Shown in pieces: positions 14,483 to 29,848 of a stretch of DNA of 38,892 nt (positions are counted from its first letter, which is position 1; each line of letters opens with the position of its first letter). A program made the position numbers and the translations under genes. This DNA is from Candidatus Nanopelagicales bacterium. GTDB lineage: Bacteria > Actinomycetota > Actinomycetes > S36-B12 > UBA5976. The stretch spans positions 1 through 38,892 of the forward strand of contig JBIKSQ010000001.1 in the NCBI GenBank assembly GCA_044348555.1. Direction: 5' to 3'. The notes below the pieces were generated by a model. The model did not search any database. It had not been told where the DNA came from and worked only from the letters and a program-made list of their open reading frames with translations.

Positions 14483-14950
14483 ATGACAATTTCTGAGATG
14501 GCAGCCCAATACAAGGCCTCAACCGATAAATTCTTGGCCGCTATTCAAGATCTAGATGTAGCAGTTCTAGACAAAGCTATTCCTGGTGAGTGGAGTGCCC
14601 GCCAAGTTATTCATCATTTGGCAGATAGTGAAGCGCAGTCCTATGCGCGACTACGTCGGCTACTGGCTGAACCCGAAGGATCCCTGATTCAAGGCTACGA
14701 TGAAGGGGCTTGGGCAGATTCTTCTTTGTTGGGGTACCAAGATTCACCAGTTGAGTTGCCACTTGCGGTGTTTATTGCTGTGAGAGCAGCATCGCACATG
14801 TTGTTATCACGCATAAGTGAAGCAGACTTAGAACGCGCAGGGATTCATTCGGAAAGTGGTCGTTATACGGTTTCAGATTGGGTGCGAAACTATACGAATC
14901 ATCCAGAGGATCATCTCGATCAACTGTTAATTGCTATTCAGCAACCTTAA
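14483..14950 (+). CDS. DinB-family (DinB_2 / MDMPI_N-like) metal-binding four-helix protein
   Basis: 155 aa with WSARQVIHHLADSE and a C-terminal NHPEDHLDQL, which are His-containing motifs typical of the DinB superfamily. Confidence 0.7.
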   Translation: MTISEMAAQYKASTDKFLAAIQDLDVAVLDKAIPGEWSARQVIHHLADSEAQSYARLRRLLAEPEGSLIQGYDEGAWADSSLLGYQDSPVELPLAVFIAVRAASHMLLSRISEADLERAGIHSESGRYTVSDWVRNYTNHPEDHLDQLLIAIQQP

Positions 14951-15482
14951 AGAAAGTCTTGAAACTCGGTGCATTTTTGTCTTTTTCTGAAACCAACGAT
15001 GCTGCAAGCGGCCATTTGATGTCGAGAGTCTCATCAAACGGGTTCACTTCATGCTCAGCTTCTGGGTTGAATGCGGTTGAGCACTGGTACAAAACTTTTG
15101 TGTCATCGGTGAGGGCTTGGAAAGCATGGCCAAAGCCCTCTGGAATATGAACTGCATTGTGTAGCTCGGAATCTAAAGTCACTGCGATCCACTGTCCGAA
15201 AGTTTTCGAGTGTGGACGCAAATCAACAATTACATCCCAGGCTTTTCCGGACACACATTGAACGTATTTAGCCTGGCCGGGTGGCACATCTGCAAAGTGA
15301 ATCCCACGGATAGTTCCTGCTTTTGAGGTCGAAAGATTGGTTTGCACAGATTCAAAGTCAATTCCAGCTGCAACCAGCAAGTCAGTTGGATTGAAAGCCT
15401 CAACGAAGTCACCCCGATTGTCATGGTGGACCGTTGGTTGAATTTCGATCACTCCATCAAACTCAAGTCTTTTGATGATCAT
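14934..15482 (-). CDS. rmlC: dTDP-4-dehydrorhamnose 3,5-epimerase
   Basis: RmlC cupin motifs: DNRGDFVEAF, GTIRGIHF, QAKYVQCVSGKAWDVIVDLR, HIPEGFGHAF and LDIKWP. Confidence 0.9.
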   Translation of the reverse strand: MIIKRLEFDGVIEIQPTVHHDNRGDFVEAFNPTDLLVAAGIDFESVQTNLSTSKAGTIRGIHFADVPPGQAKYVQCVSGKAWDVIVDLRPHSKTFGQWIAVTLDSELHNAVHIPEGFGHAFQALTDDTKVLYQCSTAFNPEAEHEVNPFDETLDIKWPLAASLVSEKDKNAPSFKTFFKVAE

Positions 15483-16351
15483 GCTTTACCTCGGCTGAGA
15501 AGCTCAAGCAGATAGTTTCCATAACCACTACTTACTAGGTTTGAGGCCAGGTTTTTAAGATCAGAATCACTAATCCAACCTTGCCGCCAGGCAACCTCTT
15601 CGATGCAACCTACCTTCAAGCCTTGTCGATGTTCCAAGATTCGAACGTATGCCGCAGCGTCATTCAGATTTTCAACTGTCCCCGTGTCCAACCATGCTGT
15701 TCCTCGAGGTAAGAGACTGACTCGCAATCTTTTTTCAGCGAGGTAAAGGGAATTCAAATCAGAAATTTCAAGTTCATCTCGATCTGAATATGCAAGTGTC
15801 TTAACTTTTTCAACCACGTCATTGCCATAAAAATAAATGCCAGGCACTGCCAAGTTGCTTTTAGGATTTAGAGGTTTCTCTTCGATTGAAAGCGCAACAC
15901 CTTCATGGTTCATTTCGACAACACCGTAATCCCTCGGATTAGCAACCTCGTAGGCGAAGATCTGTGCCCCATCAGTTTTTTCAAGACTCTCGAGCTGCCT
16001 ACCAAACCCAGCTCCATGGAAGATGTTGTCACCGAGCACAAGCGCAGTTTTCCGGCCAGCAATAAAATCTTCAGCAAGCAAGAATGACTCAGCGATACCA
16101 CGTGGTTTGGACTGCTCAAAGTAAGTGAGTTGGATTCCCCATTGTTCGCCGTCTCCTAGTAGCCGCTTAAAGGCTGAAGCGTCTTCTGGTGTTGTGATTA
16201 GCCCGATATGCCGGATGCCAGCAAGCATCAAAGTTGAGATCGGATAGTAGATCATGGGTTTGTCGTAAACCGGCAGCAATTGCTTACTTACGCCTTTGGT
16301 GATTGGCCAAAGGCGGCTACCTGTGCCACCAGCCAGAACTAATCCACGCAT
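15479..16351 (-). CDS. rmlA: glucose-1-phosphate thymidylyltransferase
   Basis: MRGLVLAGGTGSRLWPITKGVSKQLLPVYDKPMIYYPISTLMLAGIR is near-canonical RmlA. There is a 4-nt overlap with rmlC. Confidence 0.95.
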   Translation of the reverse strand: MRGLVLAGGTGSRLWPITKGVSKQLLPVYDKPMIYYPISTLMLAGIRHIGLITTPEDASAFKRLLGDGEQWGIQLTYFEQSKPRGIAESFLLAEDFIAGRKTALVLGDNIFHGAGFGRQLESLEKTDGAQIFAYEVANPRDYGVVEMNHEGVALSIEEKPLNPKSNLAVPGIYFYGNDVVEKVKTLAYSDRDELEISDLNSLYLAEKRLRVSLLPRGTAWLDTGTVENLNDAAAYVRILEHRQGLKVGCIEEVAWRQGWISDSDLKNLASNLVSSGYGNYLLELLSRGKA

Positions 16352-16424: not shown

Positions 16425-17405
16425 TTGCGTTACTTAGTTACAGGTGGGGCTGGTTTTATTGGCTCAAACTATGTACGGATGTTACTGACAGGGCGGTTAT
16501 CCGCTGATGTCAGTTCCGTAGTGGTTCTAGATGCCTTGACCTACTCCGGGAATAAAGCGAACCTTGCATCAATCTGGCAGGACCCTAGGTTCACTTTTGT
16601 CCATGGAGATATACGTGACAAGAAAATAATTTCCAAGCTGCTGAGTGACTGTGATGTGTTAATCAACTTTGCTGCGGAGAGTCATGTTGATCGCTCAATA
16701 TCAGGTTCAGAAATATTTTTCGAGTCAAATGTCCTAGGGTTACTTAATCTGCTGGAGCAGGCGCGTTCATACCCTGATATTCGAATCGTACATATTGGAA
16801 CTGATGAGGTTTACGGTTCAATCGAGTCAGGTTCTTGGGATGAATCAGCTCCATTACAACCAAACTCACCATACTCTGCCTCGAAGGCTGCAGCGGAGCA
16901 TCTAGTTCGATCCTTTCACAACACCTTTGCTTCAAATGTGACTTCTACAAGGTGTTCGAATAATTATGGTCCTTTTCAACACCGAGAAAAGTTGATTCCG
17001 TTATTTATAACAAATGCGCTGCTGGATATACCACTTCCACTTTACGGCTCAGGTTTGAATCGGCGAGATTGGTTGCATGTAGATGATCATTGTCGAGCAA
17101 TTCAAATAGTTGCCGAAAAAGGAAAAGCTGGTGAGTCCTACAACATTGGGGGCGGGGTTGAGCTTTCCAATGTTGAAATCACGCAAAAGATTCTTGATGC
17201 GGTTAAAAAAAGTTGGGAACTGGTAGTAAACGTTTCAGACCGAGCCGGACATGATTTTCGCTATTCGGTGAACGATTCAAAGATTCGTGAACTTGGATAT
17301 GCACCACAGTGCAACTTTGAAGATTCCCTGAAGCAAGTTGTCACATGGTACGAGGCAAATCCAGATTGGTGGCAATCCGCTGAACTGGTGGAGAAAAACA
17401 AGTGA
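16425..17405 (+). CDS. rmlB: dTDP-glucose 4,6-dehydratase
   Basis: An SDR with TGGAGFIGSNYV, the catalytic YSASKAA and the DEVYG motif. TTG start, divergent from rmlA. Confidence 0.95.
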   Translation: MRYLVTGGAGFIGSNYVRMLLTGRLSADVSSVVVLDALTYSGNKANLASIWQDPRFTFVHGDIRDKKIISKLLSDCDVLINFAAESHVDRSISGSEIFFESNVLGLLNLLEQARSYPDIRIVHIGTDEVYGSIESGSWDESAPLQPNSPYSASKAAAEHLVRSFHNTFASNVTSTRCSNNYGPFQHREKLIPLFITNALLDIPLPLYGSGLNRRDWLHVDDHCRAIQIVAEKGKAGESYNIGGGVELSNVEITQKILDAVKKSWELVVNVSDRAGHDFRYSVNDSKIRELGYAPQCNFEDSLKQVVTWYEANPDWWQSAELVEKNK

Positions 17406-18289
17406 CAGCGTTTGTCGCAGTTACTGGCGCAAACGGTCAACTGGGGCGGGCAGTTGTCGCAGAACTTGAGAAACTAGATTTTGCTTACAGGGCTTTCACT
17501 AGAGATGACCTCGAAATCACTGACAGTTCTAAAGTCGCCAGCAGTATCACTTCGGAGTTCACCGCAGTCATCAACTGTGCTGCCTATACAAGCGTTGATG
17601 GTGCAGAAAGTCATCCCGAGGCGGCATTTGCAGTTAATGAAAGAGGTACGTCAAACATTGCAGCTCGATGTAATGAACTTGGAATTCGGATGATTCATGT
17701 TTCGACAGATTACGTGTTTGATGGGATGACTAACACGGCGCTTAGTGAGACTGATCTTGCCAGTCCACAAACCGAGTATGGAAAATCAAAATTAGCCGGT
17801 GAGACGGCTGCGCTTTCCATCAATCCCTCTAATACTTGGGTGGTTCGAACTGCGTGGCTCTATAGCGATTTTGGGAACAACTTTGCGAACAAAATTCTCC
17901 GGAAAGCCAAAAATGGGGAAGCTCTACGAGTCGTGAATGATCAGTTTGGTTCTCCCACTTCAGCAGTTGAGGTAGCCCGAGGTCTAGTCACAATTGCTAC
18001 ATCTAAGTCTCCGGTGAATGTTGGTGTTTATCACTGTGTCAACTCAGGTGTGGCGAGTTGGCATTCCTTTGCACTCGCATTGATTGAGGCGGCTGGCCTG
18101 CAAGACCTTCAAATTCAGCCAGTGGGTTCTGATTCATTTCCAACTGTTGCACAGCGGCCAAGATTTTCGGTTCTAGATACCTCAAAGTGGCAAGCCGCAG
18201 GTCTTCCAAAGATGTCCAGCTGGGAGCAGGCACTTCAGGATTTCCAAGTGAGTAAATGGCAGGAAATCCAGGGAAATTCTGATGTCTAA
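17402..18289 (+). CDS. rmlD: dTDP-4-dehydrorhamnose reductase
   Basis: GANGQLGRAV Rossmann motif, STDYVFDG and YGKSKLAGE, typical of RmlD. GTG start overlapping the rmlB stop. Confidence 0.9.
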   Translation: MTAFVAVTGANGQLGRAVVAELEKLDFAYRAFTRDDLEITDSSKVASSITSEFTAVINCAAYTSVDGAESHPEAAFAVNERGTSNIAARCNELGIRMIHVSTDYVFDGMTNTALSETDLASPQTEYGKSKLAGETAALSINPSNTWVVRTAWLYSDFGNNFANKILRKAKNGEALRVVNDQFGSPTSAVEVARGLVTIATSKSPVNVGVYHCVNSGVASWHSFALALIEAAGLQDLQIQPVGSDSFPTVAQRPRFSVLDTSKWQAAGLPKMSSWEQALQDFQVSKWQEIQGNSDV

Positions 18290-19469
18290 AGCAGCGCTGG
18301 CGACAAAGCTTGAGGATTTAGTTGCCCTGAGAGATGAATTCGCAGCGAAACTCGAAACCTCCCAATGCAGTATGGCCGAAGCCACGAGTTGGGGGATTTC
18401 AGAGGGAAAACTTTCTCATAAACCACCGGCATTTTTTGATGTTGTGGGAGTTCAAGTTGGTCAGACGCAGAAGCTGCTTGTTCAGCAAAATGAATCGGCT
18501 GTGGTGATACTTGTTCAAACTTTGGTTGATGGCGAGCGACACTATCTGATTTCTGCACGAGCAGAGCCAGGTCTTTTGAAAAAGTGCGTTATCACTTCAA
18601 CCATTCAATCAACCCCATCAAATTTGAATCGAGTTCATGGTGGACGTGCAACAAGTTATTATGATTTTTTAGTCGACAAATCGAACCCTGTTATCAAAAT
18701 TTTTGAGTCACGAGAGTTTGACTACGGATTTGTTTATGCAAATAAGCACAAATCTTTTCAAATATTGCAGGTATCGGCGATGCTGGAAACTGATGAGAGT
18801 TTTGCTTGGGTGCCTGAATCTGTCCTGGTGGAAGCAATGCGGCAAGACAATCTAATCGGAACGGATCTGCGGGTTTTGCTAGCCAAGTATCTTCTTTTGT
18901 TGAAGCACAACTTGAAGCCAGATCTGTCAGCCGGTAAGCCGCCGTGGAGTCAACCAATCGTTAAGATTGAAAATCTGGAGAACTGGCAGATTTTGGAAAG
19001 CGGAATAGAAGAGGTGAATCATCAGCAGGGTTTTTCAGTTAAGTTCTTTCGCACAAGTTCTCCAAGTCGTGAAAAAGTGAACTGGGTTCAACCAGTATTG
19101 GATTTCACATCGAATGGACGGTGTGGATTTTGGGTCTGGTCTATTGATGAGACCACCAGATATGGGGTCGGGCAAAATAATGAGATTGGCATTTCATATT
19201 CAAACGTCTTGAGCGCCGCAATACTCAATTACCCAGGTTTTACTGAAGCTGAGAATAAGTCGAGCAGAATCACAGATAAAGTCATGGCTGATTTTGAAGG
19301 TGGTAGATTCTTTGAAACCCAGTACGAAGTCGTGCTTGCAGAATTTGATATTGATGATGAAACGGAAGAAATTCTTTGGAAGACAGAATTAGAAATCGCA
19401 CAATGCATGGTTAAGGATTTTGCAACCACTGTGGAGTTCAGGCTGGCCGCCTCACTTTTACTGAATTAG
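18282..19469 (+). CDS. NDP-hexose 2,3-dehydratase family protein (EvaA/TylX3-like), short form
   Basis: Two tandem repeats of the hexose-dehydratase module. Repeat 1 has HKPPAFFDVVGVQV, ISARAEPGL and TSTIQSTPSNLNRVHGGRATSYYDFL. Repeat 2 has GFSVKFFR, REKVNWVQPVL and GQNNEIGI. There is an 8-nt overlap with rmlD. At 395 aa it appears shorter than my recollection of about 450-480 aa for characterised members. Confidence 0.75.
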   Translation: MSKAALATKLEDLVALRDEFAAKLETSQCSMAEATSWGISEGKLSHKPPAFFDVVGVQVGQTQKLLVQQNESAVVILVQTLVDGERHYLISARAEPGLLKKCVITSTIQSTPSNLNRVHGGRATSYYDFLVDKSNPVIKIFESREFDYGFVYANKHKSFQILQVSAMLETDESFAWVPESVLVEAMRQDNLIGTDLRVLLAKYLLLLKHNLKPDLSAGKPPWSQPIVKIENLENWQILESGIEEVNHQQGFSVKFFRTSSPSREKVNWVQPVLDFTSNGRCGFWVWSIDETTRYGVGQNNEIGISYSNVLSAAILNYPGFTEAENKSSRITDKVMADFEGGRFFETQYEVVLAEFDIDDETEEILWKTELEIAQCMVKDFATTVEFRLAASLLLN

Positions 19470-20680
19470 TTGTTGTCCAGGAATTTCAGAAATTTAGCCA
19501 CATCGATGGAGTAGTTCAGCTTGTCTGGGTGAATGGTTGCATCTGGAATAGATGTACCGTAGTAAGCGTAGAAATCTCTCTGAAAAATGTTTGCTAAATC
19601 CCAGTAGAAAATATTTAACCAGTTTTCAGGACTCAAGTAAGTAACTTTTGTGTCCTTAGTGCAAAAAATAGTGTTGGCCATGGCCGCACCCATAAGTCCC
19701 ACTATTTCATTTGCACTTGCAAAACGTTGAGCCTGCTCGTAACCAGATAAATCTTCTGGGTACACCACTTCGAAGCCACGTGCCTGCATTTCTGGGATGA
19801 GAGCAGCGAGCGAGTCAGGTTCCAACAAACGATTACCTCTTCGCAGCACAAATAGTTTTCTATTTCGATTTTTGGGTGCTACATGATGCATTGAAAATTG
19901 GGTTTTTACTATTTCAAAGAATTCCGGCGAGTGGTAATTCGCATGCATCGCAGTAGGTGTCACATAGGAAACTTTTTCAAAAAAGTATTTAACGTTTCTA
20001 GGCGCAAACTCAAACAGGATCTGTTTTTTTGGAAACAGACTTTCGATGAGAATCTTTTTTTGTTGGTCTAGTTCAGCAACTATTTCAGATGACTTTGTTA
20101 ATACCAATCGATTTTGGGCTGATTTTTTGGCTATAAGAAATGCAACGATGCGAGGCAAATCTTCGACCAGAAAGTGTCCCCAGTTATGGAAACCCTCATT
20201 TGTACAAAGCAAAGTTGGGATGCTGTCAGCGGTGATTATTCGCTCCGGTGATTTGGCTAGCAGTTCTTCCGTTAGCGGCCGTGTATGAGCACCCTCTTGC
20301 TTCCGACTAAATTCGTGAAACTTAGCCCAGGATTGTTCAGGTAGGAGTAGTTGATTGAGAAAAAAACAGACCCGCTGGAGTTCAACTTCATTTACCTGCC
20401 AAGTTTGCGAGTAATCTCGAGTGAGATTTTCTTTCATTCCTTCTAGATAACGCAATTGATCTGAGACGCTGTCGGAATTATCGGCAGCCAATTTAATTTT
20501 ACATTCACGGCTGTAAGGCTTTGCAAATCCGAGCGTTGCGAGCTTCTGGCGAAAAGGGGATTTGAATTCAAGTTGGTTCGTAAGTGTCGCCAGCTCTTGT
20601 ATGAAGTCAGGGTTTGCCGGCGAAAGGCTATCATCATCAATCAGCAGCACTGGTTGATTGATTGTGGCATCGCTCGTCAC
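19466..20680 (-). CDS. glycosyltransferase family 61 (DUF563) protein
   Basis: EGFHNWGHFLVEDLPRIV matches the (N/H)xxHWxxExLPR motif. The C-terminal block RRGNRLLEPDSLAALIPEMQARGFEVVYPEDLSGYEQAQRFASANEIVGLMGAAMANTIFC matches the GT61 acceptor/donor half. Confidence 0.65.
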   Translation of the reverse strand: MTSDATINQPVLLIDDDSLSPANPDFIQELATLTNQLEFKSPFRQKLATLGFAKPYSRECKIKLAADNSDSVSDQLRYLEGMKENLTRDYSQTWQVNEVELQRVCFFLNQLLLPEQSWAKFHEFSRKQEGAHTRPLTEELLAKSPERIITADSIPTLLCTNEGFHNWGHFLVEDLPRIVAFLIAKKSAQNRLVLTKSSEIVAELDQQKKILIESLFPKKQILFEFAPRNVKYFFEKVSYVTPTAMHANYHSPEFFEIVKTQFSMHHVAPKNRNRKLFVLRRGNRLLEPDSLAALIPEMQARGFEVVYPEDLSGYEQAQRFASANEIVGLMGAAMANTIFCTKDTKVTYLSPENWLNIFYWDLANIFQRDFYAYYGTSIPDATIHPDKLNYSIDVAKFLKFLDNN

Positions 20681-20945: not shown

Positions 20946-22976
20946 ATGACAACTCAAAGATTGGTTATTCATTTAGGTCCGCCCAAGACAGGCTCGACTG
21001 CTATTCAGTCATTTATGCGGGCGGCCAGTGAGTCTGGAAGCCTGCGGAGTATTCAATATCCTCTAATTGATAAGAAAATTGCAGTGGATTCAATTGAGTC
21101 TGGTAATGGCAGCTCAATCAGCCATTACCTACGTCATGAGGGAGGCGTGAACCGGCCAGTAGCAGATCTAGAAAGAAAAGTCCTTCGAGTTCTGGGAGAT
21201 TGTCCAAACTCTGACTTACCCATTCTTTTAAGTTCTGAGGGATTTTGGGGGCTGGATGCTTTGTCTGCTCCTATGTGTGTTGACGCTTTACAGGGCCTAG
21301 GTTTCGCACCTGAATTTCTCTTTGTAGTGCGCCCTTTTCAGGACGTTTGGCAAAGTCAAATTTCTCAAGCCATTCGCGGTGGACGTTTTGAAGATTTTGA
21401 TTCGTCAATTGGATCTAAGATTTATGAGAACGCCATAAATCTTTGGTCACGCTTCGATCTGCCACTGCATGCAATCCCGTACGATTCTAGAAATGCAACT
21501 AGTAATTTTCTTGATTTCTTGGGTGAGTCTCACCTGAAGGATTTTGATTTTGGCTTTGAGAGAGTTAATCAAAAACTATCTGGACCTGAGGCTCAAGTTA
21601 TCCGAAAATATAATGGATCAATTGATGGAAATAAATGGTCCGTACAAATCGCTAATAATCTACGAGAGTTCTACGAAGAAGTTGACGTAGAAACCAGAGA
21701 AACCCTTGAGCGCGAAGTGAAAGAAACTTGTATCTCTAATTTAGAGATTCCGGATTCAATGCAACCAAAGCACGGGTATGAGCTGCTCAAGATTGCCAGG
21801 AAGCGCTGTGAGACCCCATTGAATCAAGATTTCTGGGAGCTACTGATGATTGGCTCGGATGCACCAAAGACATACACTTTTGAGAACACTCCAGCACTCG
21901 CAGCTCTTAATCCGGAGCCAATCCTGAGTGAGATTGAAAATGACCTGCTTCTCAAATCTACGATGCTTACGCTGTCGATGGTTCAAAACCATGCCAACAA
22001 TCTCGAAGCGTTACTTGCAGCCGGCTCACCGTTTAGTCAACTAATTTTGGCAAACGATGGAAAACTTGAATTCGACGCCTCGAGTCAGTTAGTTCGATCT
22101 CGGCTTGGCTTTGATCCGATTCACTATCTGATGCTTAATCCAGATGTTGATCGAGCTGGAGTTGAACCCTATGAACATTTCAAATTGTTTGGTAAATCTG
22201 AGGGACGCTACACAAAGATATCCAAAAGAACTGCGTCTAAATCTGTCTTTCTGAATGGCAGACCACTATTTCTAATTCACTCTCCAAGAACTGGTGGAAC
22301 TGCTTTGAGAGAGATGCTGACCGATGAATTTGGCGAAGATCGAGTAACAAGGTCGCATCAAAATGTGGCTGTTGAGAAGAAAGAGTCATATAAAGATTTT
22401 GAATTTTTACTTGGCGAAAAGGGTGTACAAGCAGCATCAAAGAACGCAGTTCTTGTAGGACACTTTCCAGCACAAGTGAAAGATGAATTAGATTTTGAAC
22501 ACTATTCTGCGATTTTTGTTCGAGAGCCAATCGCAAGATCAATCTCAATGTTGAGGAAAGAAGTGAAGGATAAAGGTTTAAGCATTGATGAATTGATCAG
22601 TGATACTTATTTTATGGATGAATACATAAAGGATGCTCAGTGCCGAATTCTCTCGGCTCCAGCGTCACTGGAATCCGGAAGCGGAATTTTTGATGTTAAC
22701 GAATCCATGTTGGAGTTGGCGAAATCCAAGTTGAAGGAGTTTGACTTCATTGGACTCTATGAAAACTATAATGAATCGATTCGCCATTTTGACTCGACTT
22801 TCAAAACGAGTCTTCAGAGTCGTATGGAAAAAGTTAATGAAAGTCCAGATGTTGAAGTTCCGACTGGTATCGCAGAAGTACTCACACCGCTAGTTACGAT
22901 GGACCTGAAACTTTATGAGTACGCAGTGGAGTTGTTCCAGGCACGTATTAGCAATACTGACATGCAGGTTCATTAG
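20946..22976 (+). CDS. tandem double sulfotransferase-like protein (two PAPS-binding-type domains joined by a helical linker with an NPDV motif)
   Basis: The N-terminal domain has GPPKTGST (aa 11-18), SSEGFWG and VVRPFQDVWQS (aa ~127-137). The C-terminal domain has SPRTGGT (aa 446-452), FVREPIARSIS (aa 524-534) and FDFIGLYENYNESI, which is Sulfotransfer_2-like. These correspond to 5'-PSB and R-x-P...S motifs. Confidence 0.6.
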   Translation: MTTQRLVIHLGPPKTGSTAIQSFMRAASESGSLRSIQYPLIDKKIAVDSIESGNGSSISHYLRHEGGVNRPVADLERKVLRVLGDCPNSDLPILLSSEGFWGLDALSAPMCVDALQGLGFAPEFLFVVRPFQDVWQSQISQAIRGGRFEDFDSSIGSKIYENAINLWSRFDLPLHAIPYDSRNATSNFLDFLGESHLKDFDFGFERVNQKLSGPEAQVIRKYNGSIDGNKWSVQIANNLREFYEEVDVETRETLEREVKETCISNLEIPDSMQPKHGYELLKIARKRCETPLNQDFWELLMIGSDAPKTYTFENTPALAALNPEPILSEIENDLLLKSTMLTLSMVQNHANNLEALLAAGSPFSQLILANDGKLEFDASSQLVRSRLGFDPIHYLMLNPDVDRAGVEPYEHFKLFGKSEGRYTKISKRTASKSVFLNGRPLFLIHSPRTGGTALREMLTDEFGEDRVTRSHQNVAVEKKESYKDFEFLLGEKGVQAASKNAVLVGHFPAQVKDELDFEHYSAIFVREPIARSISMLRKEVKDKGLSIDELISDTYFMDEYIKDAQCRILSAPASLESGSGIFDVNESMLELAKSKLKEFDFIGLYENYNESIRHFDSTFKTSLQSRMEKVNESPDVEVPTGIAEVLTPLVTMDLKLYEYAVELFQARISNTDMQVH

Positions 22977-22978
22977 AC

Positions 22979-23920
22979 ATGGATGTGTTAAACAGAAAAC
23001 CCCTGTACGCATTCGGTGAACCAAAGGGGCAAGAAAATTCGCCAATTTTGGTGTTGGGTTCAGCTCGTGGTGGAACTTCAATGGTGGCAGGAGTGCTGGC
23101 CAAGCTAGGTATTTTTCTGGGAGAAGGTGCTGTTTCGCCAGTCTATGAATCGAACGAGTTGTCAGGGCGGCTTTTGGGTCGAAGTGACAGAAAAGCAAAG
23201 AGTGCGGTTGCTGAGTTAAATGCCAATCACGCCTTATGGGCTTGGAAACGACCTGCTGCGGTATATGACCTAAGCCGAACAATGAAAAGAATGCAGCCCA
23301 ATCGAGTCATTATGGTGTTTCGTGATCCCATGGCAACCGCATCTCGTAGGTCTATGTCGGTTGGAGACTTACAGGTAAGTGACTTTGGCGGAATTTCAGA
23401 ACATCTACAAATGGTTTTGAACGAGTACAGCGAAATGTTGGCTTTAGCGTCTGGACTTAAAGTTCCAGTTGCAATGGTCAGTTATGACACGGCACTGCGA
23501 AATCCAAAGGAGTTTGTGGAGCAACTTGTTGCCTTCTTAGGTGTTAGCGCAGAGCCTGAAGCGCTTGCATCAGCTATCGAATTCATAAAGCCAAGTCCAG
23601 CTGAATATATGATGGCTGTAAGAACTCAGTATGTCAATGGAGTGCTCGATGGGGTGGATGAAGATTCGATATGGGGTTGGGTAAAGTCTCAAAAAGGTGA
23701 TACCGAGGGACCAGTAGAGGTGGAGATTCTGCTTAATGGCGAAAGGTGTACCTCGATGTTGGCTAATCAGCAACGTAATGATTTAACCGGAGCAGGCTAT
23801 GGGGATTGCGCATTTAGATTTGAGCTAGAAACTCCATTGCCCGCTGGTACCGAGGTGCGAGTCCGGGTCTTAGGCGATGGCTTAGAATTAAGAAATTCAC
23901 CACTATTTTTTAAGGGTTAG
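22979..23920 (+). CDS. sulfotransferase family protein with extra C-terminal ~95-aa module
   Basis: ILVLGSARGGTS (PSB-type loop, aa 23-34) and VFRDPMATASRR (aa 113-124). The ATG lies 2 nt after the upstream stop. The C-terminal module reads GVLDG..IWGWV..VEVEILLNGE..QRNDL..AGYGDCAFRFEL. Confidence 0.6.
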   Translation: MDVLNRKPLYAFGEPKGQENSPILVLGSARGGTSMVAGVLAKLGIFLGEGAVSPVYESNELSGRLLGRSDRKAKSAVAELNANHALWAWKRPAAVYDLSRTMKRMQPNRVIMVFRDPMATASRRSMSVGDLQVSDFGGISEHLQMVLNEYSEMLALASGLKVPVAMVSYDTALRNPKEFVEQLVAFLGVSAEPEALASAIEFIKPSPAEYMMAVRTQYVNGVLDGVDEDSIWGWVKSQKGDTEGPVEVEILLNGERCTSMLANQQRNDLTGAGYGDCAFRFELETPLPAGTEVRVRVLGDGLELRNSPLFFKG

Positions 23921-23935: not shown

Positions 23936-25261
23936 ATGGCTTTAAGGACATTCGAGGAGTCTGATTCCGAGTATGAGCTCGCTCAACAACGCCCTCCAAG
24001 CAAACGACTAATCCGTCAGATTCTCGACACTTTACGGTACCCAAATGCATTGCTGGTTGTAGCAGCATTGACGATTAAGCCTTGGTTTCAATCTAAATTT
24101 GCAGATGACCAAATCTTGCGTAACCGCGAATGGAAAAGTGGTCAGCCGGTACTGCTGGTTGGTTTATGGGAAAAAGGTGAAGTGCGTTCAGATGTATCCC
24201 GATTACTCAAGTTAGCAAAGAAACAAGGCGCCTATGTCGTAGGTGTCAACACCAGCCGACTTTCCAATCCAACTTCTGGGGAAGATTTGTTCGATTTGTA
24301 TATCGAACGATTCAACTATGGTCGGGACTTTGGTTCGTATAAGACCGGGATACTCAGAATTCACAAGCAGATCGGCTTATCGAATATTCCAAGATTGGTC
24401 TTACTTAATGACAGCGTTTTCTACTTAGAAAAAGAAACTCCAGAGTTTTTGGACAAAATGCTGTCTTCAACTATTGATGTTTTGGGGGCCACTGAGAATT
24501 TTGAAATTCGCCGACATCTAGGTTCCTTCGCGATCTCCATAGGCAACAGTGTTCTGAGTAACCCAAAGTTTTTGAATTTTTGGCAGAAGTACCGCTTAAG
24601 CGATTTGCGCACTCGAGTAATTCGTACAGGTGAAATGAACTTGACCAAAGTTCTCGAGAAATGTGCCACCAGCGACAACCAGTTCGATGCGATTTACACA
24701 GTCAAGTCAGTTTCACAATTTTTGCAATCAGATCTGAAAAACATAGACACAGCACTAGCGTTAACAACCCACAGTAGAAATCATTGGCGTAAGCTGACAA
24801 TGCGCCAAGTGTTAGAAGCCTGGCGTCAGCGGAATCTCTACACTGTGACGAATCTCAATTCGAGCACTCAAATAAATACAGACTCTTCGCTAGATACCGT
24901 AAGTGCGCCTACGACCTTGGTCGCTGCCCAAAAGGAACTATCGCGACTATATCCGTCGGTTGATAAAAAAGCAGTGGCAGCTGAAATTAGGGAATTAACT
25001 ATTGGTGCTTTGTTGTTGACATGTGTATCGGGAAGCCAAGTCCATCAAAATGGACTTTTATTTCATCAGCTTGGATCCCCGTTGGTGAAGTTAGACGTTA
25101 TCTATCGCGGGACCTGGTCCTATGAGGATGCTGAAAAATTGATGACATCAATTTCAGTAAGTGACAAGGTTGAGTTGTCACGGCTGCTCTACTCGCGCGC
25201 ATATGGAGAAGACGTGCTGCGTGGATGGCGTCGGGCCGCGTTCATGCGGGGAATCATTTAA
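23936..25261 (+). CDS. polysaccharide biosynthesis protein, putative glycosyltransferase distantly RgpF-related
   Basis: 441 aa. Motifs NYGRDFGSYKTG, VLLNDSVFYLEK and RHLGSFAISIG...FLNFWQKY resemble blocks I recall from rhamnan-synthesis-type transferases. That recollection is weak and the function is tentative. Confidence 0.35.
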   Translation: MALRTFEESDSEYELAQQRPPSKRLIRQILDTLRYPNALLVVAALTIKPWFQSKFADDQILRNREWKSGQPVLLVGLWEKGEVRSDVSRLLKLAKKQGAYVVGVNTSRLSNPTSGEDLFDLYIERFNYGRDFGSYKTGILRIHKQIGLSNIPRLVLLNDSVFYLEKETPEFLDKMLSSTIDVLGATENFEIRRHLGSFAISIGNSVLSNPKFLNFWQKYRLSDLRTRVIRTGEMNLTKVLEKCATSDNQFDAIYTVKSVSQFLQSDLKNIDTALALTTHSRNHWRKLTMRQVLEAWRQRNLYTVTNLNSSTQINTDSSLDTVSAPTTLVAAQKELSRLYPSVDKKAVAAEIRELTIGALLLTCVSGSQVHQNGLLFHQLGSPLVKLDVIYRGTWSYEDAEKLMTSISVSDKVELSRLLYSRAYGEDVLRGWRRAAFMRGII

Positions 25262-26040
25262 CTTTTGTTTCTGGCTTTAATGATTTTTTGATAGGTGGCA
25301 ATCGCTTTTTCAATGCCAGAGTCACTTATGATTTTTCCGTCTTGCAGAACAATCCCTCTGTTACAGAAATCTTTTAGCAGATTTGAATTATGTGAAGCTA
25401 GCACCATAATTCCAGCTGAGTCCATAAAACTAGAAAGTCGGCGCTCCGCCTTTTTTGCAAAATCGGAATCAGCAGCTCCGATACCCTCGTCAATCACTAG
25501 AACCTTAGGGCGAAGTGCGGTAAGAGTTGAGAATCGAAGTCGGGCAGACATGCCAGATGAATAAGTAAAAACGGGGTCTTCAATCCGTTCACCAAGTCCG
25601 CTGAACTCAATAATCTCATCTACTAGTGATTGCATATGTTCAATGCTCTCACCGAGCGAAATCCCGATGGACACAATGTTTTGACGACCGCTAGCTTCTT
25701 GATCTAATCCCAACTCTGCCCCACCTAGAAGTCCAAGGGCACGTCCCTTTAGGTAGTACTCACCTTCACTAGGTGGCAGCACACCAGCTAGGACATGCAG
25801 CAGTGTGGTTTTTCCCGCCCCGTTTAGGCCCAAAATTCCAAGTCGGTCTCCATCGTTCAGAAACAGTGAAACGTTATCCAACGCTTTTACAGTGCGCTGA
25901 CTATCGCTGCTCCTTTGAACGAACTTAAGAATTCGCCGTTTGAGGTTGTAATCCAGCGGACTAAGTATTCGATACTCAACACTGACATTGTTCAGCATTA
26001 GTCTGCAGGCGTCTGGTAACTCAGTATTCATTAGACCCAA
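25258..26040 (-). CDS. polysaccharide/teichoic-acid export ABC transporter ATP-binding protein (Wzt/TagH/RgpD-like), no C-terminal glycan-binding domain
   Basis: Walker A GLNGAGKTT, signature YSSGMSARLRFS and Walker B VLVIDE. At 260 aa it consists of the nucleotide-binding domain only. Confidence 0.9.
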   Translation of the reverse strand: MGLMNTELPDACRLMLNNVSVEYRILSPLDYNLKRRILKFVQRSSDSQRTVKALDNVSLFLNDGDRLGILGLNGAGKTTLLHVLAGVLPPSEGEYYLKGRALGLLGGAELGLDQEASGRQNIVSIGISLGESIEHMQSLVDEIIEFSGLGERIEDPVFTYSSGMSARLRFSTLTALRPKVLVIDEGIGAADSDFAKKAERRLSSFMDSAGIMVLASHNSNLLKDFCNRGIVLQDGKIISDSGIEKAIATYQKIIKARNKS

Positions 26041-26873
26041 TACCTCAACCTTTGGCGTGAGAAAGAAAATGCATAGAAACCGAGTGCCAGGTTAACCACG
26101 GTAAAGCTGATTGCCGATATCCAGGAAAGCGGAGAAACGGCGTCTCCCAAAATTGGCGACCTAACAATTTCGAGTAGATACGCAATTGGATTCCAGGCTG
26201 TGAGTAGATTCCTTTGCGAAGCTGCTAGGTCATCTGGGTACCAAAAGATTGGTGTTATAAACATGAAGACGCTGGAGAGTGTTTGGATAAGAGGCGCAAG
26301 ATCTCGAAAGCGAGCTGCTAGGGGGGCCACCCAGAAAGAAATTGCAAAAGCATTAATCAGCACTAGCGCCAGACCAAGGACACTTAAGAATGCAGCTTCA
26401 CTCCAATCACGATGAAGAACGAGAAGAGTGATTGCCACAGCTACTAGATCGTGACCGAGCTGGATCAAGGTTGTTGAGATGAATCGAAAATTGAGAATCG
26501 AAACTGGCATTGCTGAATTCTTTAGAACTGAAATGTTTGCAGTTATCAATGTTGCAGAGGTATTGAGTGAACTCACTAGGACACTGAAAACGATAAAGCC
26601 AATCGCTACGTATGGAATGAAATCAGCGATATCGCGCCCTAATAAAGTGCCAAACAGCAGAGATAGTCCGGCAATGAAGAAAAGTCGCTGCAGAGTGATC
26701 CACCATGGGCCCAGAATGGTTCGACGGTACTTCGATAAAACTTGTTGTTTTGAAATTACCCACCAAGCGGCTGGGCTCTCAATACTCTGCTTCAAATCCT
26801 CCAGCGCTGCAGCATGGCCGGTTTGGTATTGAAGAGTCATGCTTTGGTACGTTTTTGGTGGTCTATCGAGCAT
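26031..26873 (-). CDS. ABC-2 type polysaccharide export permease (Wzm/TagG/RgpC-like)
   Basis: 280 aa with 6 hydrophobic helices. The N-terminal YRRTILGPWWITLQ motif is typical of ABC-2 exporters. It overlaps the ATPase gene by 10 nt. Confidence 0.85.
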   Translation of the reverse strand: MLDRPPKTYQSMTLQYQTGHAAALEDLKQSIESPAAWWVISKQQVLSKYRRTILGPWWITLQRLFFIAGLSLLFGTLLGRDIADFIPYVAIGFIVFSVLVSSLNTSATLITANISVLKNSAMPVSILNFRFISTTLIQLGHDLVAVAITLLVLHRDWSEAAFLSVLGLALVLINAFAISFWVAPLAARFRDLAPLIQTLSSVFMFITPIFWYPDDLAASQRNLLTAWNPIAYLLEIVRSPILGDAVSPLSWISAISFTVVNLALGFYAFSFSRQRLRYWV

Positions 26874-26881
26874 TACTCCTC

Positions 26882-27973
26882 CTAACCTTTTAGATCTCTA
26901 AACAGCTCTTCGTATTGGTCAACAATTTGTTGCCACTGATAGTTACTCAACACATGTTTGCTGAGAAGTTTATTCCGTGGTTTTTGCTTCCATGGTTTTT
27001 CATTGAGTAATTTCTGAAGTTCGAGCAAGTCTTTCCACGCCCATCCATTTTCTGCTGTTACTTCATTGTTGAACGGGTTATCGTGATGAAGAACCTCAAC
27101 TCCAGCAGCAGAACCACGCAATAGCGCTGGGTTGGTGCCACCGGTTCGGTGTCCGTGTATGTAAACCTGGCAGTTAGACCAGAGAGATTCGAGAATTTCC
27201 TGGTCCCAGACTGGACCTAGGATTATTGAATTCGGGTGTTTGGCAGCAGCTTCGACTACTAAATGTGCGTATTTGGATTCACGATTTCGTGATTCCCCAA
27301 CAATCACAAGTTGATTTGTACTGGCCTCTCCGTGCGCTGTGATTATTTCGGCTACCTGCGTGTCTGATTCCCATCGCGCCACAACCAAGTCATAGTCGGA
27401 ATCAATGCCCGCGATGATTTCGGATTCAGTTTGTGGCGATACCGGTGCTCGGCTGCCGTAACTAATTACATTTAACTCCCGATTGAAGTTGGTTTTATAC
27501 CATTTCGCAACAGCTCGTGAATCTGTTAATAGCGTGATTTTAGATTTAACGGCAGTCTTGATCGCACTGTGGAGGACTGCCCCTCCCAGACCACGCCACT
27601 TAATCCGGGTGTGCTCGAGTCCTGCCATATGAAGGACAGTTGGAATTCTTGCAGTGCGTAGGAGTTTTGCCGACCATACGTTTGCGGGATTACAAATCAG
27701 TACAACGTCTGGTCTTGAAACAAAGATTGCATGAAGAGTTGATGAGAATCCAGACGAGATACTTTCAAATGCTTGGCCTGGCATCGTCGCACTTCTAATA
27801 GCAGTTAGATTCTTGGAGAGCTGCTGTTTTTTTGGTTGCGCCTCGGTACTTCGGCCATAGACAGTTACAAGGTGTCCCTTCGCTGCAAGGCCATGCCCAA
27901 GCTCGTCCGCTAACGTTTCAAATCCGCCGTATCGAGGTGGTAAACCTCGAGTCCCGAGTATCGCAATTTTCAC
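26882..27973 (-). CDS. glycosyltransferase (GT4-like) with N-terminal DUF1972, RgpA/WchF-type rhamnosyltransferase-like
   Basis: MKIAILGTRGLPPRYGGFETLADELGHGLAAKGHLVTVYG is the DUF1972 signature. The C-terminal GT-B half contains HGHRTGGTNPALL (E/H-x7-E-type region). Confidence 0.8.
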   Translation of the reverse strand: MKIAILGTRGLPPRYGGFETLADELGHGLAAKGHLVTVYGRSTEAQPKKQQLSKNLTAIRSATMPGQAFESISSGFSSTLHAIFVSRPDVVLICNPANVWSAKLLRTARIPTVLHMAGLEHTRIKWRGLGGAVLHSAIKTAVKSKITLLTDSRAVAKWYKTNFNRELNVISYGSRAPVSPQTESEIIAGIDSDYDLVVARWESDTQVAEIITAHGEASTNQLVIVGESRNRESKYAHLVVEAAAKHPNSIILGPVWDQEILESLWSNCQVYIHGHRTGGTNPALLRGSAAGVEVLHHDNPFNNEVTAENGWAWKDLLELQKLLNEKPWKQKPRNKLLSKHVLSNYQWQQIVDQYEELFRDLKG

Positions 27974-28815
27974 TTTGTAGCACTTTGAAAATTCAAATCT
28001 TCAATTGCCACCACACCTGCTCCAACGACAGATGCGATTACTCCAACAAGGCGTTCAACAGCATGTGACACTGTTCCATCCGCTGGCGAAGGCTCAGTTG
28101 AAAACTCATTTACTGAGAGATTCAGCTGCGAGATTTTCTCAACAATTGAGGGAGTAGCCCAAAACATAGTCCCTGCTGGGAATGTGAAGTCGGATGGAAG
28201 ATTATCTATTCCAACATCTTGCGCCAGGCTCTTTATCTGGTTCAGGTTTGCGCCGAGATAGTTGGTATCCAAGCAAAAATTCTTTTCCGTTGTGAAGAAC
28301 TCTTGTGTGGCAGAAAGGTGGCGGAGCTTGATTCCAAGTTCTGGCGCAAGAAGTCGAAGCGCCAGCGAATGATCAAGCACGGAACCTGTCGGCAGATTTC
28401 TAGGATGCTTAGTATGAATTTTCAAGACTAAGGCAGATTCAGAGAGCAACTTTTTTTGGGCCAAGTTCACAAATGGAAAAACGTCGCGGCCCTGATTGTC
28501 AAAGGCATATACCTGCGCTCCAGTGTTGAATCTAGTGTTTAACTTAGAAACTTGAGACTCAAGCTCATGACTGGTTGTTAAAAGTACTTGGGTGTTTAGC
28601 CCACTTTCATATTTAAAACTTCGAATGGCTTGCAGAATCTCGCTCGCAGAATCTAAGTAGTAAAGGTGCGCAACAATTGTCACATCGTATGTAAAGGATT
28701 GAGCTTCAGTCTTTTTCTGTTCAGCGAGCGTCGCATCTAAATTAGGTTGACGCCAAATTAATAAACGATAACGAAGGCGTCGCGCTTTTCCAGTTAAGCG
28801 TCGGATGAATCGCAT
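27970..28815 (-). CDS. rhamnan synthesis protein F (RgpF) family protein
   Basis: A series of RgpF-type blocks: VAHLYYLD, NQGRDVFPF, LKIHTKH, FPAGTMFWA, DGTVSHAVERL. Confidence 0.65.
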   Translation of the reverse strand: MRFIRRLTGKARRLRYRLLIWRQPNLDATLAEQKKTEAQSFTYDVTIVAHLYYLDSASEILQAIRSFKYESGLNTQVLLTTSHELESQVSKLNTRFNTGAQVYAFDNQGRDVFPFVNLAQKKLLSESALVLKIHTKHPRNLPTGSVLDHSLALRLLAPELGIKLRHLSATQEFFTTEKNFCLDTNYLGANLNQIKSLAQDVGIDNLPSDFTFPAGTMFWATPSIVEKISQLNLSVNEFSTEPSPADGTVSHAVERLVGVIASVVGAGVVAIEDLNFQSATK

Positions 28816-28858: not shown

Positions 28859-29848
28859 TTATGAAGTTTTGCGGTAGTTATGAATTGTGTCGTTTGCTAA
28901 TCTTTTTTTAACCTTAAGTAGTTTTTCTTGTTCCAAATAAACAACGGCCATTCCAGATTCTGTAAATCCACTTGCGCCAATTTGTAACGTAAACGTTCGG
29001 ATCCCATCATTTGGTAGATTTCTCAATATCTGGGCAGTCTCAATGGCAAAGCCAAGATCAACTCCGTTATCCAAAGCCAAGTACGGTGAGATCTCTCTAA
29101 AGGCTCTCGTGGCAGCTACCGGGTTACTAAGCAGACCATTGCTCAGTGACTTTTGGAGTATGGCGAGAATGACTGCCCGCTGGTGTTCAGCTCGCTGGTA
29201 ATCGCCACGTGGAAGGTTTTTTCGTTCTCGTGAATAGGCCAAAGCCTCGGTACCGGAGAGGGAAATCAACCCGGCTGGAAACTCGAATTCAACTGGGCCA
29301 CTAGATGAGAAATACTGATTGTTGATCAGTTCGACTCCGCCAATTGAATCGATGAGTCCTTCGAAGCCATCAAAGTCAATCAGCGCCACATGATCAATTC
29401 GGGTATCTAAGATGTTTTCGACAGTGGCCACCATCGTTGGAACTCCGCCAAGGGAAAGAGCTGCATTCACTCGGTTCATCCCATAGGAGGGAATTTCAAC
29501 GTAGGTATCACGCATAATCGAGATGATGGTTATGTACTTTTGATTGGCAGAAACATGAACGAGCATGATGCTGTCTGCCCGAGTTCCTTCAATATTGTCA
29601 ATGCCTTTTCCGCTTTGACCCGCTGAGTCCACACCTAGAAATAGGGTGTTTTGCCCGTTAGCGGCTTCATCGGTAGCGGGGCTTGGCCGTTTTGACTCAT
29701 CTGGGAAAACGTTTTCAATTCGAGTCAGGTTGGAGTTGGCCTGAATCAAGCCAACAATCAAGCTTCCCACCGTAACTAAAGCCCAAATGCCCAAGGAGGC
29801 AACAATCCCGAGTAAAACTCGAGACCGAAATGACTTTGGCAGTTTCAT
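28859..29848 (-). CDS. LytR-CpsA-Psr (LCP) family glycopolymer-peptidoglycan ligase
   Basis: An N-terminal TM anchor, then LFLGVDS, RADSIMLVHV, ISIMRDTYVEIP, NRVNAALSLGG and REKNLPRGDYQRAEHQ, which are classic LCP blocks. Confidence 0.9.
   Translation of the reverse strand: MKLPKSFRSRVLLGIVASLGIWALVTVGSLIVGLIQANSNLTRIENVFPDESKRPSPATDEAANGQNTLFLGVDSAGQSGKGIDNIEGTRADSIMLVHVSANQKYITIISIMRDTYVEIPSYGMNRVNAALSLGGVPTMVATVENILDTRIDHVALIDFDGFEGLIDSIGGVELINNQYFSSSGPVEFEFPAGLISLSGTEALAYSRERKNLPRGDYQRAEHQRAVILAILQKSLSNGLLSNPVAATRAFREISPYLALDNGVDLGFAIETAQILRNLPNDGIRTFTLQIGASGFTESGMAVVYLEQEKLLKVKKRLANDTIHNYRKTS

Follow-up and report, generated by a model that had tools for sequence, protein, structure and literature searches.

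Three sulfotransferase-type domains encoded by two coupled genes within a predicted rhamnan-type wall-glycan cluster of an uncultured Nanopelagicales actinobacterium

We analyzed a 38,892-bp stretch of DNA (the window; G+C content of about 45%) from contig JBIKSQ010000001.1 of a Candidatus Nanopelagicales bacterium, with a focus on two adjacent forward-strand genes that encode proteins of 676 and 313 amino acids (aa). Together, these two proteins contain three regions, namely the N- and C-terminal domains of the 676-aa protein (N-domain and C-domain) and the 313-aa protein itself, and family profiles, joined by structure models for the N-domain and the 313-aa protein, support a sulfotransferase-type assignment for all three. 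The surrounding cluster is predicted to make a wall polysaccharide of the rhamnose (Rgp) type that is exported by an ATP-binding cassette (ABC) transporter and ligated by an LCP (LytR-CpsA-Psr) enzyme. Because the sulfotransferase genes lie inside such an ABC-exported, LCP-ligated cluster that is syntenic in three relatives, their natural reading is probably a sulfated wall glycan, and we consider it fairly likely that this glycan is sulfated in the cytoplasm while it is still undecaprenyl-linked, before export.

A sequence-only reading of the window had pointed to two adjacent, coupled genes carrying three pairs of motifs as found in sulfotransferases that use 3'-phosphoadenosine 5'-phosphosulfate (PAPS), and this claim stands, as the open reading frames (ORFs), the gap between them, the motif positions and the uniqueness of the motif pattern all agree. 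The 676-aa ORF ends in a TAG stop codon at 22974-22976 and the ATG of the 313-aa gene follows at 22979; with a gap of only 2 nt between stop and start, the two genes are tightly coupled. The third gene of the operon, which encodes an RgpF-like protein, starts 15 nt past the 313-aa gene. Polysaccharide sulfotransferases are defined by a Lys or Arg in the 5'-phosphosulfate-binding (PSB) motif, a Ser in the helix of the 3'-phosphate-binding (PB) motif, and a beta-sheet on which these motifs form a strand-loop-helix and a strand-turn-helix, respectively (PMC11625862). The first pair in the 676-aa protein consists of GPPKTGST (aa 11-18) and VVRPFQDVWQS (aa 127-137), and the second of SPRTGGT (aa 446-452) and FVREPIARSIS (aa 524-534), while the 313-aa protein carries GSARGGTS (aa 27-34) and VFRDPMATASR (aa 113-123). 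The window was translated in all six frames, which gave 70 segments of 100 aa or more, and searched with a regular expression that describes a PSB-like loop, 60-125 residues, and then a hydrophobic residue followed by R-[PDE]-[PF] and a downstream Ser. The expression matched exactly these three pairs, and gave zero matches in 2000 shuffles of the 676-aa and 313-aa proteins. The presence of three motif pairs is thereby confirmed as a real observation and not a chance pattern.

For the 313-aa protein, sequence profiles and a structure model together give strong support for a sulfotransferase-type domain. It scored 40.5 bits against the Pfam Sulfotransfer_3 model (cutoff 27 bits, E=4.9e-10), so that the assignment made from its motifs alone is borne out by a profile hidden Markov model (HMM). 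The AlphaFold2 (AF2) model of the protein, with a predicted local distance difference test (pLDDT) score of 86.6, shows aa 1-216 as an alpha/beta domain and aa 219-313 as a beta-sandwich. In the former, strand 21-27 leads through RGGTS into helix 33-42, and strand 109-114 leads through FRD into helix 117-127. A Foldseek search of the PDB with this model points the same way: the top 29 matches were all PAPS sulfotransferases or sulfotransferase-fold enzymes crystallized with adenosine 3',5'-bisphosphate, including TPST1/2 (best match TPST2, E=3.6e-7), cytosolic SULTs, CurM-ST, retinol dehydratase and the mycobacterial enzymes Stf0, Stf1 and Stf9. We found 26 homologues, including full-length ones from Polaromonas, Methylovulum and a metagenome-assembled genome (MAG) of the Thermodesulfobacteriota. 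In a 25-member alignment of this family, the conserved positions are R30-G-G-T-S after strand 21-27, E57, W87, K90, and F-R/K-D at 114-116 before helix 117-127. E57 is about 27 residues past the PSB, which we take to be where TPST and heparan-sulfate sulfotransferases place their catalytic base. The PSB itself is of the R-x-G type, as in NodH (PMC11625862).

The beta-sandwich that follows this catalytic domain comprises 6-7 strands in the AF2 model, with pLDDT mostly at 85-95, and is kept in the full-length homologues from Proteobacteria and Thermodesulfobacteriota. A profile of the beta-sandwich found no sequence matches in the PDB, and no sequence-level similarity was detected between it and Wzt_C, the carbohydrate-binding domain found at the C-terminus of some Wzt ATPases. 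Between strains, the beta-sandwich varies more than any other part of the protein; it is 47% identical to the orthologue on one related metagenomic contig (L001), where the catalytic domain reaches 71%. It may be a glycan-binding module.

In the 676-aa protein, no region reached a Pfam threshold, and the evidence for both of its domains comes from family profiles. The profile search suggested by the motifs thus succeeded in part, with the 313-aa protein passing its Pfam model and the C-domain family profile giving a significant match, while the 676-aa protein itself stayed below the thresholds. For the C-domain, we built a profile (A4) from the window segment and 11 standalone relatives. This profile matched the zebrafish heparan-sulfate 6-O-sulfotransferase 3 (HS6ST3, PDB 5t03) with E=1.5e-14 over three collinear segments, in which the PSB (HvmKTaGT with HiqKTGGT) and the PB motif (flRePiaRslS with mlRdPvsRylS) are aligned, as are about 105 C-terminal residues. 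On its own, the window protein matched 5t03 with E=0.015. The Pfam Sulfotransfer_2 model (PF03567) gave 14.7 bits on the whole protein and 18.2 bits on the domain alone, below the gathering score of 22 bits, and matched three of the 12 C-domain relatives, the best with 1.6e-7. Invariant positions in the family are T449, G451, T452, H506, R526, P528, R531 and S534, with a conserved GH at aa 505-506. As the basic PSB residue, the window protein and its close orthologues have an Arg (R448); the wider family has either Lys or Arg. Taken together, these sequence comparisons strongly support a sulfotransferase of the Sulfotransfer_2/HS6ST-like type. Elsewhere, a domain of this type also occurs fused to a family 2 glycosyltransferase (GT2).

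Support for the N-domain as a sulfotransferase type is moderate, and comes from both sequence families and a structure model. The N-domain of the window protein itself has zero Pfam or NCBIfam matches, and its family profile gave only chance-level matches to PDB sequences. We therefore rely on the family as a whole: when the 27 family members were scanned singly against Pfam, the only families matched by more than one member were Sulfotransfer_4 (5/27), Sulfotransfer_1 (4/27) and Sulfotransfer_3 (2/27), all weakly. Sulfotransfer_2 was matched by a single member, and the remaining families were single matches with E-values of 0.008 or weaker, with no kinase family among them. The sulfotransferase matches extend over around 150 residues in which both motifs fall, and in one member the Sulfotransfer_4 gathering score is reached (22.9 versus 22.8 bits). 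Across the 27 sequences, G16, R129 and S137 are invariant and K14 is nearly so; S96 and E98, which follow strand 93-97, are also conserved. The AF2 model is good for aa 1-355 (pLDDT 80-94); in it, strand 4-10 is followed by PKTGST and then by helix 17-29, strand 120-128 closes with R129, and helix 131-145 contains S137. In other words, the model predicts a PSB strand-loop-helix and a PB strand-turn-helix, the geometry by which polysaccharide sulfotransferases are defined (PMC11625862).

The alternative is that only two of the three domains are sulfotransferases, and that the N-domain is a P-loop kinase-like domain or a non-catalytic nucleotide- or glycan-binding module. Fold comparison leaves room for this: the best Foldseek match of the N-domain in the PDB is TPST2 with E=1.2e-3, and matches to PFKFB kinase domains, thymidylate kinases, zeta toxins and APS-kinase-like proteins follow closely at 2e-3 to 2e-2, so that the fold search alone does not separate the modelled N-domain from P-loop kinases. 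The lack of PDB sequence matches and of Pfam matches for the window protein fits the same alternative, as does the comparison of the N-domain with the C-domain and with the 313-aa family by hhalign, which was not significant; its sole aligned segment sets the PB motifs in register. Several features nevertheless argue for a sulfotransferase. GPPKTGST misfits the Walker A motif (G-x4-G-K-[ST]) and fits a sulfotransferase PSB, with the Lys preceding the Gly; a strand-turn-helix carries the invariant residues R129 and S137 in R-x7-S spacing; the Pfam families matched by several members are all sulfotransferase families; and an independent fusion of an N-domain to a Sulfotransfer_3 domain is encoded near cysD, cysNC and cysQ. 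We therefore regard the two-sulfotransferase alternative as rather unlikely, and a PAPS-binding sulfotransferase domain as quite likely on the combined sequence and model evidence. The APS-kinase-like fold matches also led us to consider the N-domain as an APS kinase, which we rejected as it has no canonical Walker A motif. The N-domain founds a sizeable sulfotransferase-like family for which Pfam has no model.

Genes of the N-domain family were found in several settings. The fusion mentioned above is a 619-aa protein (P0182, L085 10001-11860) in which the Sulfotransfer_3 domain scores 66.6 bits; cysD, a cysN-cysC fusion and cysQ, which form a PAPS-making set, are located about 7 kb upstream (L085 1-3508), with transposase genes in between. 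In two Nanopelagicales-type MAGs (L084, 6860-18398; L088, 187-12663), N-domain-family genes adjoin an ABC-2 permease (Wzm) gene, with a sulfatase gene 1.4 kb upstream, and GT4 and UDP-glucose dehydrogenase genes also adjoin N-domain genes in such MAGs. In L088, a Sulfotransfer_3 gene is also present 9 kb upstream, and in L084 a second N-domain-like gene lies at 17208-18398. Another N-domain gene adjoins genes for GlfT2, GT2 and UDP-galactopyranose mutase, with Wzm/Wzt nearby. A metagenome scan for the N-domain yielded 17 mostly short loci, among which there was no further association with cys genes.

A word-index search across 5.8 billion clusters returned only 5 close full-length relatives of the 676-aa protein. 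When a profile of the orthologues was run exhaustively with HMMER against 1.84 billion representatives, it matched 3820 proteins, and these matches divide the query into three modules. The first (aa 1 to about 240) matches standalone proteins of 380-460 aa; in the examples that we read, the domain is followed by a helical region, with a single copy of a 34-aa repeat at the C-terminus. The second module (aa 387-422) is this repeat, and the third (aa 436-674) matches standalone proteins of 235-260 aa. Since standalone N-domain proteins share the order of domain, spacer and repeat, the spacer belongs to the N-domain family and was not created by the fusion. The earlier description of a helical stretch of about 200 aa between the two domains is correct in that the spacer is helical (aa 213-369), but the stretch is not continuous: DSSP assigns helices at 213-225, 232-244, 248-265, 274-288, 294-300, 316-321, 329-358 and 362-369 in the AF2 model, which amounts to around eight separate helices of 6-30 aa with no long continuous helix predicted, followed by a low-confidence segment that holds the repeat. 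Having 47-60% identity to the orthologues and saturated synonymous divergence (dS), the spacer is the least conserved segment of the protein.

The repeat differs sharply from the spacer in conservation, as it is 97% identical among the orthologues with a ratio of nonsynonymous to synonymous divergence (dN/dS) of 0.02-0.035, and this extreme conservation suggests that it contacts a conserved partner. Its consensus is FDPxHYLxLNPDVxxAGxDPxxHFxxFGxxEGR. The same repeat occurs in 5-18 tandem copies in hundreds of large proteins, where its partners include methyltransferase-GT2-GT1 giants, RTX proteins, cadherin-domain proteins and one glucosaminidase, and no Pfam model matched the repeat regions of these proteins.

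This architecture bears on a bolder idea of the sequence-only reading, by which sulfate is placed on the non-reducing terminal sugar as a chain-terminating cap and the spacer of the 676-aa protein sets chain length like the coiled coil of WbdD. Systems whose transporter has only a nucleotide-binding domain (NBD), such as the Klebsiella O2a type, are not known to use caps, and the Wzt encoded here is NBD-only: the NBD-only model spans aa 17-251 of its 260 residues, which leaves the C-terminal carbohydrate-binding domain absent, and no Wzt_C match was found anywhere in the cluster. A coiled-coil ruler was rejected on the AF2 helices, without a dedicated coiled-coil predictor, since the model gives separate helices of which the longest is 30 aa; the spacer and repeat are moreover standard in standalone N-domain proteins of 380-400 aa, which leaves no fusion-specific ruler, and it is in the spacer that conservation is lowest. 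The beta-sandwich of the 313-aa protein is unlike Wzt_C in sequence, and three domains of different sulfotransferase lineages exceed what a cap needs. There are points in favor of a cap as well. The enzymes are encoded in an ABC-transporter-dependent cluster, a pathway for which terminal caps are described (PMC3482155, PMC9445017); two catalytic domains are joined by a helical region; the 313-aa enzyme has a beta-sandwich of its own; and a Sulfotransfer_2 domain fused to Wzt_C in Candidatus Competibacter, alongside a short Wzt, hints at a sulfotransferase coupled to recognition of the terminus. In Aeromonas salmonicida, too, an ORF with a sulfotransferase domain adjoins Wzt and WbbB, yet sulfate was not observed in the bulk O-antigen (PMC4483657). 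On balance, we consider a WbdD-like sulfate cap with a ruler unlikely.

WbdD of Escherichia coli O9a and the WbbB terminators do resemble the 676-aa protein in being multi-domain cytoplasmic modifying enzymes of an ABC-dependent pathway with a helical region between catalytic modules. They differ from it by their extended coiled coil, while here the Wzt lacks a carbohydrate-binding module (CBM), the spacer is poorly conserved and the predicted modification is sulfate rather than phosphomethyl or Kdo, so that membership in this group is not supported. A variant to which we assign little probability is that a terminal sulfate serves as a stop or export signal that is read in trans by a glycan-binding module carried on a sulfotransferase, which would be the beta-sandwich of the 313-aa protein here and Wzt_C on the Competibacter fusion. 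If true, this would be a new trans-acting control of chain length, together with a sulfated, phosphorus-free wall polyanion in freshwater actinobacteria. The Competibacter fusion (P0184) is encoded on L086 / L087 (10001-11740 and 19397-20143), in a cluster with a short Wzt of 244-248 aa that also encodes a Sulfotransfer_3 plus GT2 protein of about 1000 aa.

The genes around the two sulfotransferase genes were identified by Pfam and NCBIfam scans (Table 1), and these uphold the context claimed from sequence alone: a GT61 gene upstream, an RgpF-like gene downstream, and a Wzm with an NBD-only Wzt. One locus holds rmlABCD, rhamnosyltransferase-type genes of the RgpF and GT4 families, Wzm/Wzt and an LCP enzyme, the set that characterizes an Rgp-type cluster. 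The NCBIfam scan gave zero matches for the three sulfotransferase-type domains, the RgpF-like protein and GT61, and we found no initiating polyprenyl-phosphate transferase in the window. RgpF is apparently split, with profile positions 18-153 matched on the forward strand (23936-25261) and positions 262-498 on the reverse strand (27970-28815). The NDP-hexose 2,3-dehydratase ORF overlaps the end of rmlD. Its presence implies a 2,6-dideoxy or 3-amino sugar in addition to rhamnose, and no partner ketoreductase or aminotransferase was seen within the window.

Table 1. Coordinates of the sulfotransferase-type domains, their parts and the neighboring cluster genes in the window.
Feature	Position	Strand	Basis
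676-aa protein with two sulfotransferase-type domains (N-domain, helical spacer, one 34-aa repeat, C-domain)	20946..22976	+	ORF list
N-domain core, aa 1-212, divergent sulfotransferase-like P-loop domain (predicted)	20946..21581	+	AF2, Foldseek, family Pfam matches
N-domain PSB loop GPPKTGST	20976-20999	+	aa 11-18
N-domain PB element R129-x7-S137	21324-21356	+	aa 127-137
Helical spacer, aa 213-385, most variable part of the 676-aa protein	21582..22100	+	DSSP on AF2 model
Single 34-aa repeat copy, FDPIHYLMLNPDVDRAGVEPYEHFKLFGKSEGR, aa 389-421	22110..22208	+	HMMER matches to repeat arrays
C-domain, Sulfotransfer_2/HS6ST-like (predicted), aa 436-676	22251..22973	+	Family profile vs HS6ST3
313-aa protein ORF	22979..23920	+	ORF list
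Sulfotransferase domain of the 313-aa protein (predicted), aa 1-216	22979..23626	+	Sulfotransfer_3, AF2 model, Foldseek, family alignment
C-terminal beta-sandwich, about 95 aa, aa 217-313	23627..23920	+	AF2, homologue conservation
rmlC	14934-15482	-	Pfam dTDP_sugar_isom
rmlA	15479-16351	-	Pfam NTP_transferase
rmlB	16425-17405	+	Pfam GDP_Man_Dehyd/Epimerase
rmlD	17402-18289	+	Pfam RmlD_sub_bind
NDP-hexose 2,3-dehydratase	18282-19469	+	Pfam Hexose_dehydrat
GT61-family glycosyltransferase, divergently transcribed	19466..20680	-	Pfam Glyco_transf_61, 1.7e-18
RgpF N-part-like glycosyltransferase, 441 aa	23936..25261	+	Pfam RgpF 27.3 bits, profile positions 18-153 of 503
Wzt ABC ATPase, 260 aa, NBD only	25258..26040	-	Pfam ABC_tran aa 54-185; NCBIfam galactan-export Wzt model aa 17-251
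Wzm ABC-2 permease	26031..26873	-	Pfam ABC2_membrane, 3.2e-12
GT4 glycosyltransferase, DUF1972-type N-terminus	26882..27973	-	Pfam Glyco_transf_4 + DUF1972
RgpF C-part-like rhamnan synthesis protein	27970..28815	-	Pfam RgpF 1.2e-25, profile positions 262-498 of 503
LCP ligase, attachment of glycan to peptidoglycan	28859..29848	-	Pfam LytR_cpsA_psr, 1.8e-40

The order GT61, 676-aa protein, 313-aa protein, RgpF, Wzt, Wzm, GT4, RgpF and LCP is kept on three metagenomic contigs (L001, L002 and L003), whose 676-aa orthologues are 68-76% identical to the window protein. Among 185,579 GTDB species representatives, there were no relatives of the 676-aa family, and the cluster beside cbiM was in no GTDB representative genome; the best match of CbiM in the GTDB scan, with 62% identity, came from a Candidatus Nanopelagicales MAG. 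The host is an uncultured actinobacterium without a close genome representative. Against L001 and L003, the flanking genes show 80-99% identity with a dS of about 0.6-1.0, while dS reaches saturation across the part of the 676-aa gene that encodes the N-domain and spacer, and in L001 throughout the 313-aa gene as well. GT61 is 84% identical in L001 and 34% identical in L003, where the gene is partial (L003 1-324). From these comparisons, GT61, the N-terminal part of the 676-aa gene and the 313-aa gene make a variable cassette, while conservation in the rest of the locus is 80-93%. This pattern fits enzymes that set a strain-specific surface epitope, and diversification of surface antigens would give rise to it. 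The sulfotransferase genes appear to be functional, because whole-gene dN/dS stays at 0.10-0.15 (0.15 for the 676-aa gene versus two orthologues), in line with purifying selection, and so does GT61.

Considering these data together, which establish gene order, conservation, purifying selection and the identities of the domains, we propose the following pathway, in which donor, acceptor, timing and number of sites are inferred. A rhamnose-containing polysaccharide would be built on undecaprenyl phosphate at the cytoplasmic face by GT4, the split RgpF and GT61, fed by rmlABCD. Using PAPS as a donor, the three domains would then O-sulfate sugar hydroxyls of the lipid-linked glycan before export; up to three positions or residues, on the chain or on side-branches, may be sulfated, which is probable because the domains come from three different sulfotransferase lineages. 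For acceptor recognition, the 313-aa protein would likely use its beta-sandwich, and the 676-aa enzyme its variable parts, namely the N-domain and the spacer. The sulfated polymer would be exported by the CBM-less Wzm/Wzt and ligated to peptidoglycan by the LCP enzyme, and the product would be a phosphorus-free, polyanionic wall polymer. We infer decoration of the glycan rather than capping, because three sulfotransferase lineages are present, the Wzt is without a cap-reading domain and the spacer is unlike a ruler. Of what had been read from the sequence alone, the sulfated wall glycan stays as a candidate, with three sulfotransferase-type domains in a syntenic rhamnan-type cluster behind it, and the cap and ruler idea is not supported.

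Several observations weigh against a sulfated wall glycan. At the level of the enzymes, the 676-aa protein has zero above-threshold Pfam matches, the N-domain has the kinase fold matches and non-significant alignments described above, and the AF2 model of aa 356-676 has a pLDDT below 50, as the alignment is shallow (22 proteins), which makes the C-domain model unusable. Lastly, none of cysD, cysNC and cysQ is present in the 38.9-kb window, and cultured Nanopelagicales are reported to be without a complete assimilatory sulfate-reduction pathway in two papers that are silent on the absence of ATP sulfurylase and APS kinase (PMC5301498, PMC12817590). The present organism is only distantly related to these cultured isolates. 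Because Nanopelagicales-type MAGs carry sulfotransferase-like and sulfatase genes, a total absence of sulfate-ester chemistry in such lineages is unlikely, although PAPS supply is not thereby proven.

In another explanation, the enzymes act on a lipid, a small metabolite or a protein, or are non-functional because the host makes no PAPS. Stf0, Stf1 and Stf9 are among the fold matches of the 313-aa protein, and to our knowledge the actinobacterial sulfotransferases characterized so far act on glycolipids and menaquinone; the variant without PAPS agrees with the incomplete sulfate assimilation of the relatives (PMC5301498, PMC12817590). However, the genes form a tightly coupled unit with a glycosyltransferase gene in a syntenic glycan cluster, and together with GT61 they are its co-varying part. 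Furthermore, each domain has relatives that recur in fusions with glycosyltransferases and Wzm/Wzt or beside them, and the dN/dS values argue against decay. We therefore deem this explanation quite improbable, and retain the lipid-linked wall glycan as the favored acceptor.

Sulfotransferases in bacterial polysaccharide clusters are already known. KpsS of Mesorhizobium loti, NodH and LpsS of Sinorhizobium, and the enzymes of synechan (xss), a cyanobacterial sulfated polysaccharide cluster (PMC8205485), are likewise cytoplasmic PAPS-type sulfotransferases encoded within polysaccharide clusters. Of these, NodH resembles the 313-aa protein in being a Sulfotransfer_3 protein whose PSB is of the R-x-G type (PMC11625862). 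In marine Vibrio and Cobetia, sulfated capsules have been described whose clusters encode sulfotransferases (PMC11641403, PMC11766843). The hosts of KpsS, NodH, LpsS and synechan are Gram-negative bacteria or cyanobacteria and the products are capsules, exopolysaccharides or lipopolysaccharides, whereas here the host is an actinobacterium and the predicted product an LCP-ligated, Rgp-type wall glycan. The present system also differs from these in having three domains of three lineages, two of which are fused and one of which has no Pfam model.

Outside of polysaccharide clusters, the C-domain family shares the PSB, the PB motif and about 105 C-terminal residues with HS6ST3, but the C-domain is bacterial and cytoplasmic, has an Arg in place of the PSB Lys, scores below the Pfam cutoff and is fused behind a sulfotransferase-like domain. 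TPST and NodH-type Sulfotransfer_3 enzymes (PDB 3ap3, 5wrj) provide the best structural match of the 313-aa catalytic domain (3.6e-7) and the top match of the N-domain, and share the Arg-type PSB. Identity is about 15% and TM-scores are about 0.4-0.46, a carbohydrate acceptor is expected, and the beta-sandwich is absent from TPST. The cluster itself shares rmlABCD, RgpF-type and GT4 (DUF1972) genes, an RgpC/D-like Wzm/Wzt and an LCP ligase with the streptococcal and lactococcal Rgp/Gac pathway, from which it differs by the split RgpF, the presence of GT61 and NDP-hexose 2,3-dehydratase, and its actinobacterial host. Rgp/Gac polymers are decorated with side-chain sugars and glycerol phosphate; here, sulfation is predicted instead.

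What differs here is the actinobacterial host with its LCP-ligated product, the number and fusion of the domains, the family and the repeat without Pfam models, and the appended beta-sandwich. Within the limited literature set that we searched, which is no proof of absence, neither a sulfated rhamnan of actinobacterial walls nor a sulfate cap in an ABC-dependent pathway was described, and reports of sulfated polysaccharides were confined to cyanobacteria, rhizobia, algae and marine Gram-negative bacteria. For Gram-positive bacteria, there are essentially no descriptions of wall polymers that are both sulfated and linked to peptidoglycan. If the proposed sulfation is true, the walls of abundant freshwater-type actinobacteria would contain a polyanion free of phosphorus in the place where one would normally expect teichoic acids, and this would bear on phosphorus economy, recognition by phages and grazers, and cation binding. 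Bacterial enzymes that sulfate rhamnans could in addition serve the production of polymers of the rhamnan-sulfate type.

Elsewhere in the window, an ORF near the cluster (12423-13709, reverse strand) belongs to sulfur metabolism, as it matches the NCBIfam model "type III sulfide:quinone reductase, selenoprotein subtype" with 626.8 bits (cutoff 525). A 568-aa ORF (2159-3865, reverse strand) with zero Pfam or NCBIfam matches lies directly upstream of a response-regulator gene (3862-4572) and overlaps it. Downstream, beyond the LCP gene, the window continues with cbiMQO and a gene for an actinobacterial DUF6421 protein.

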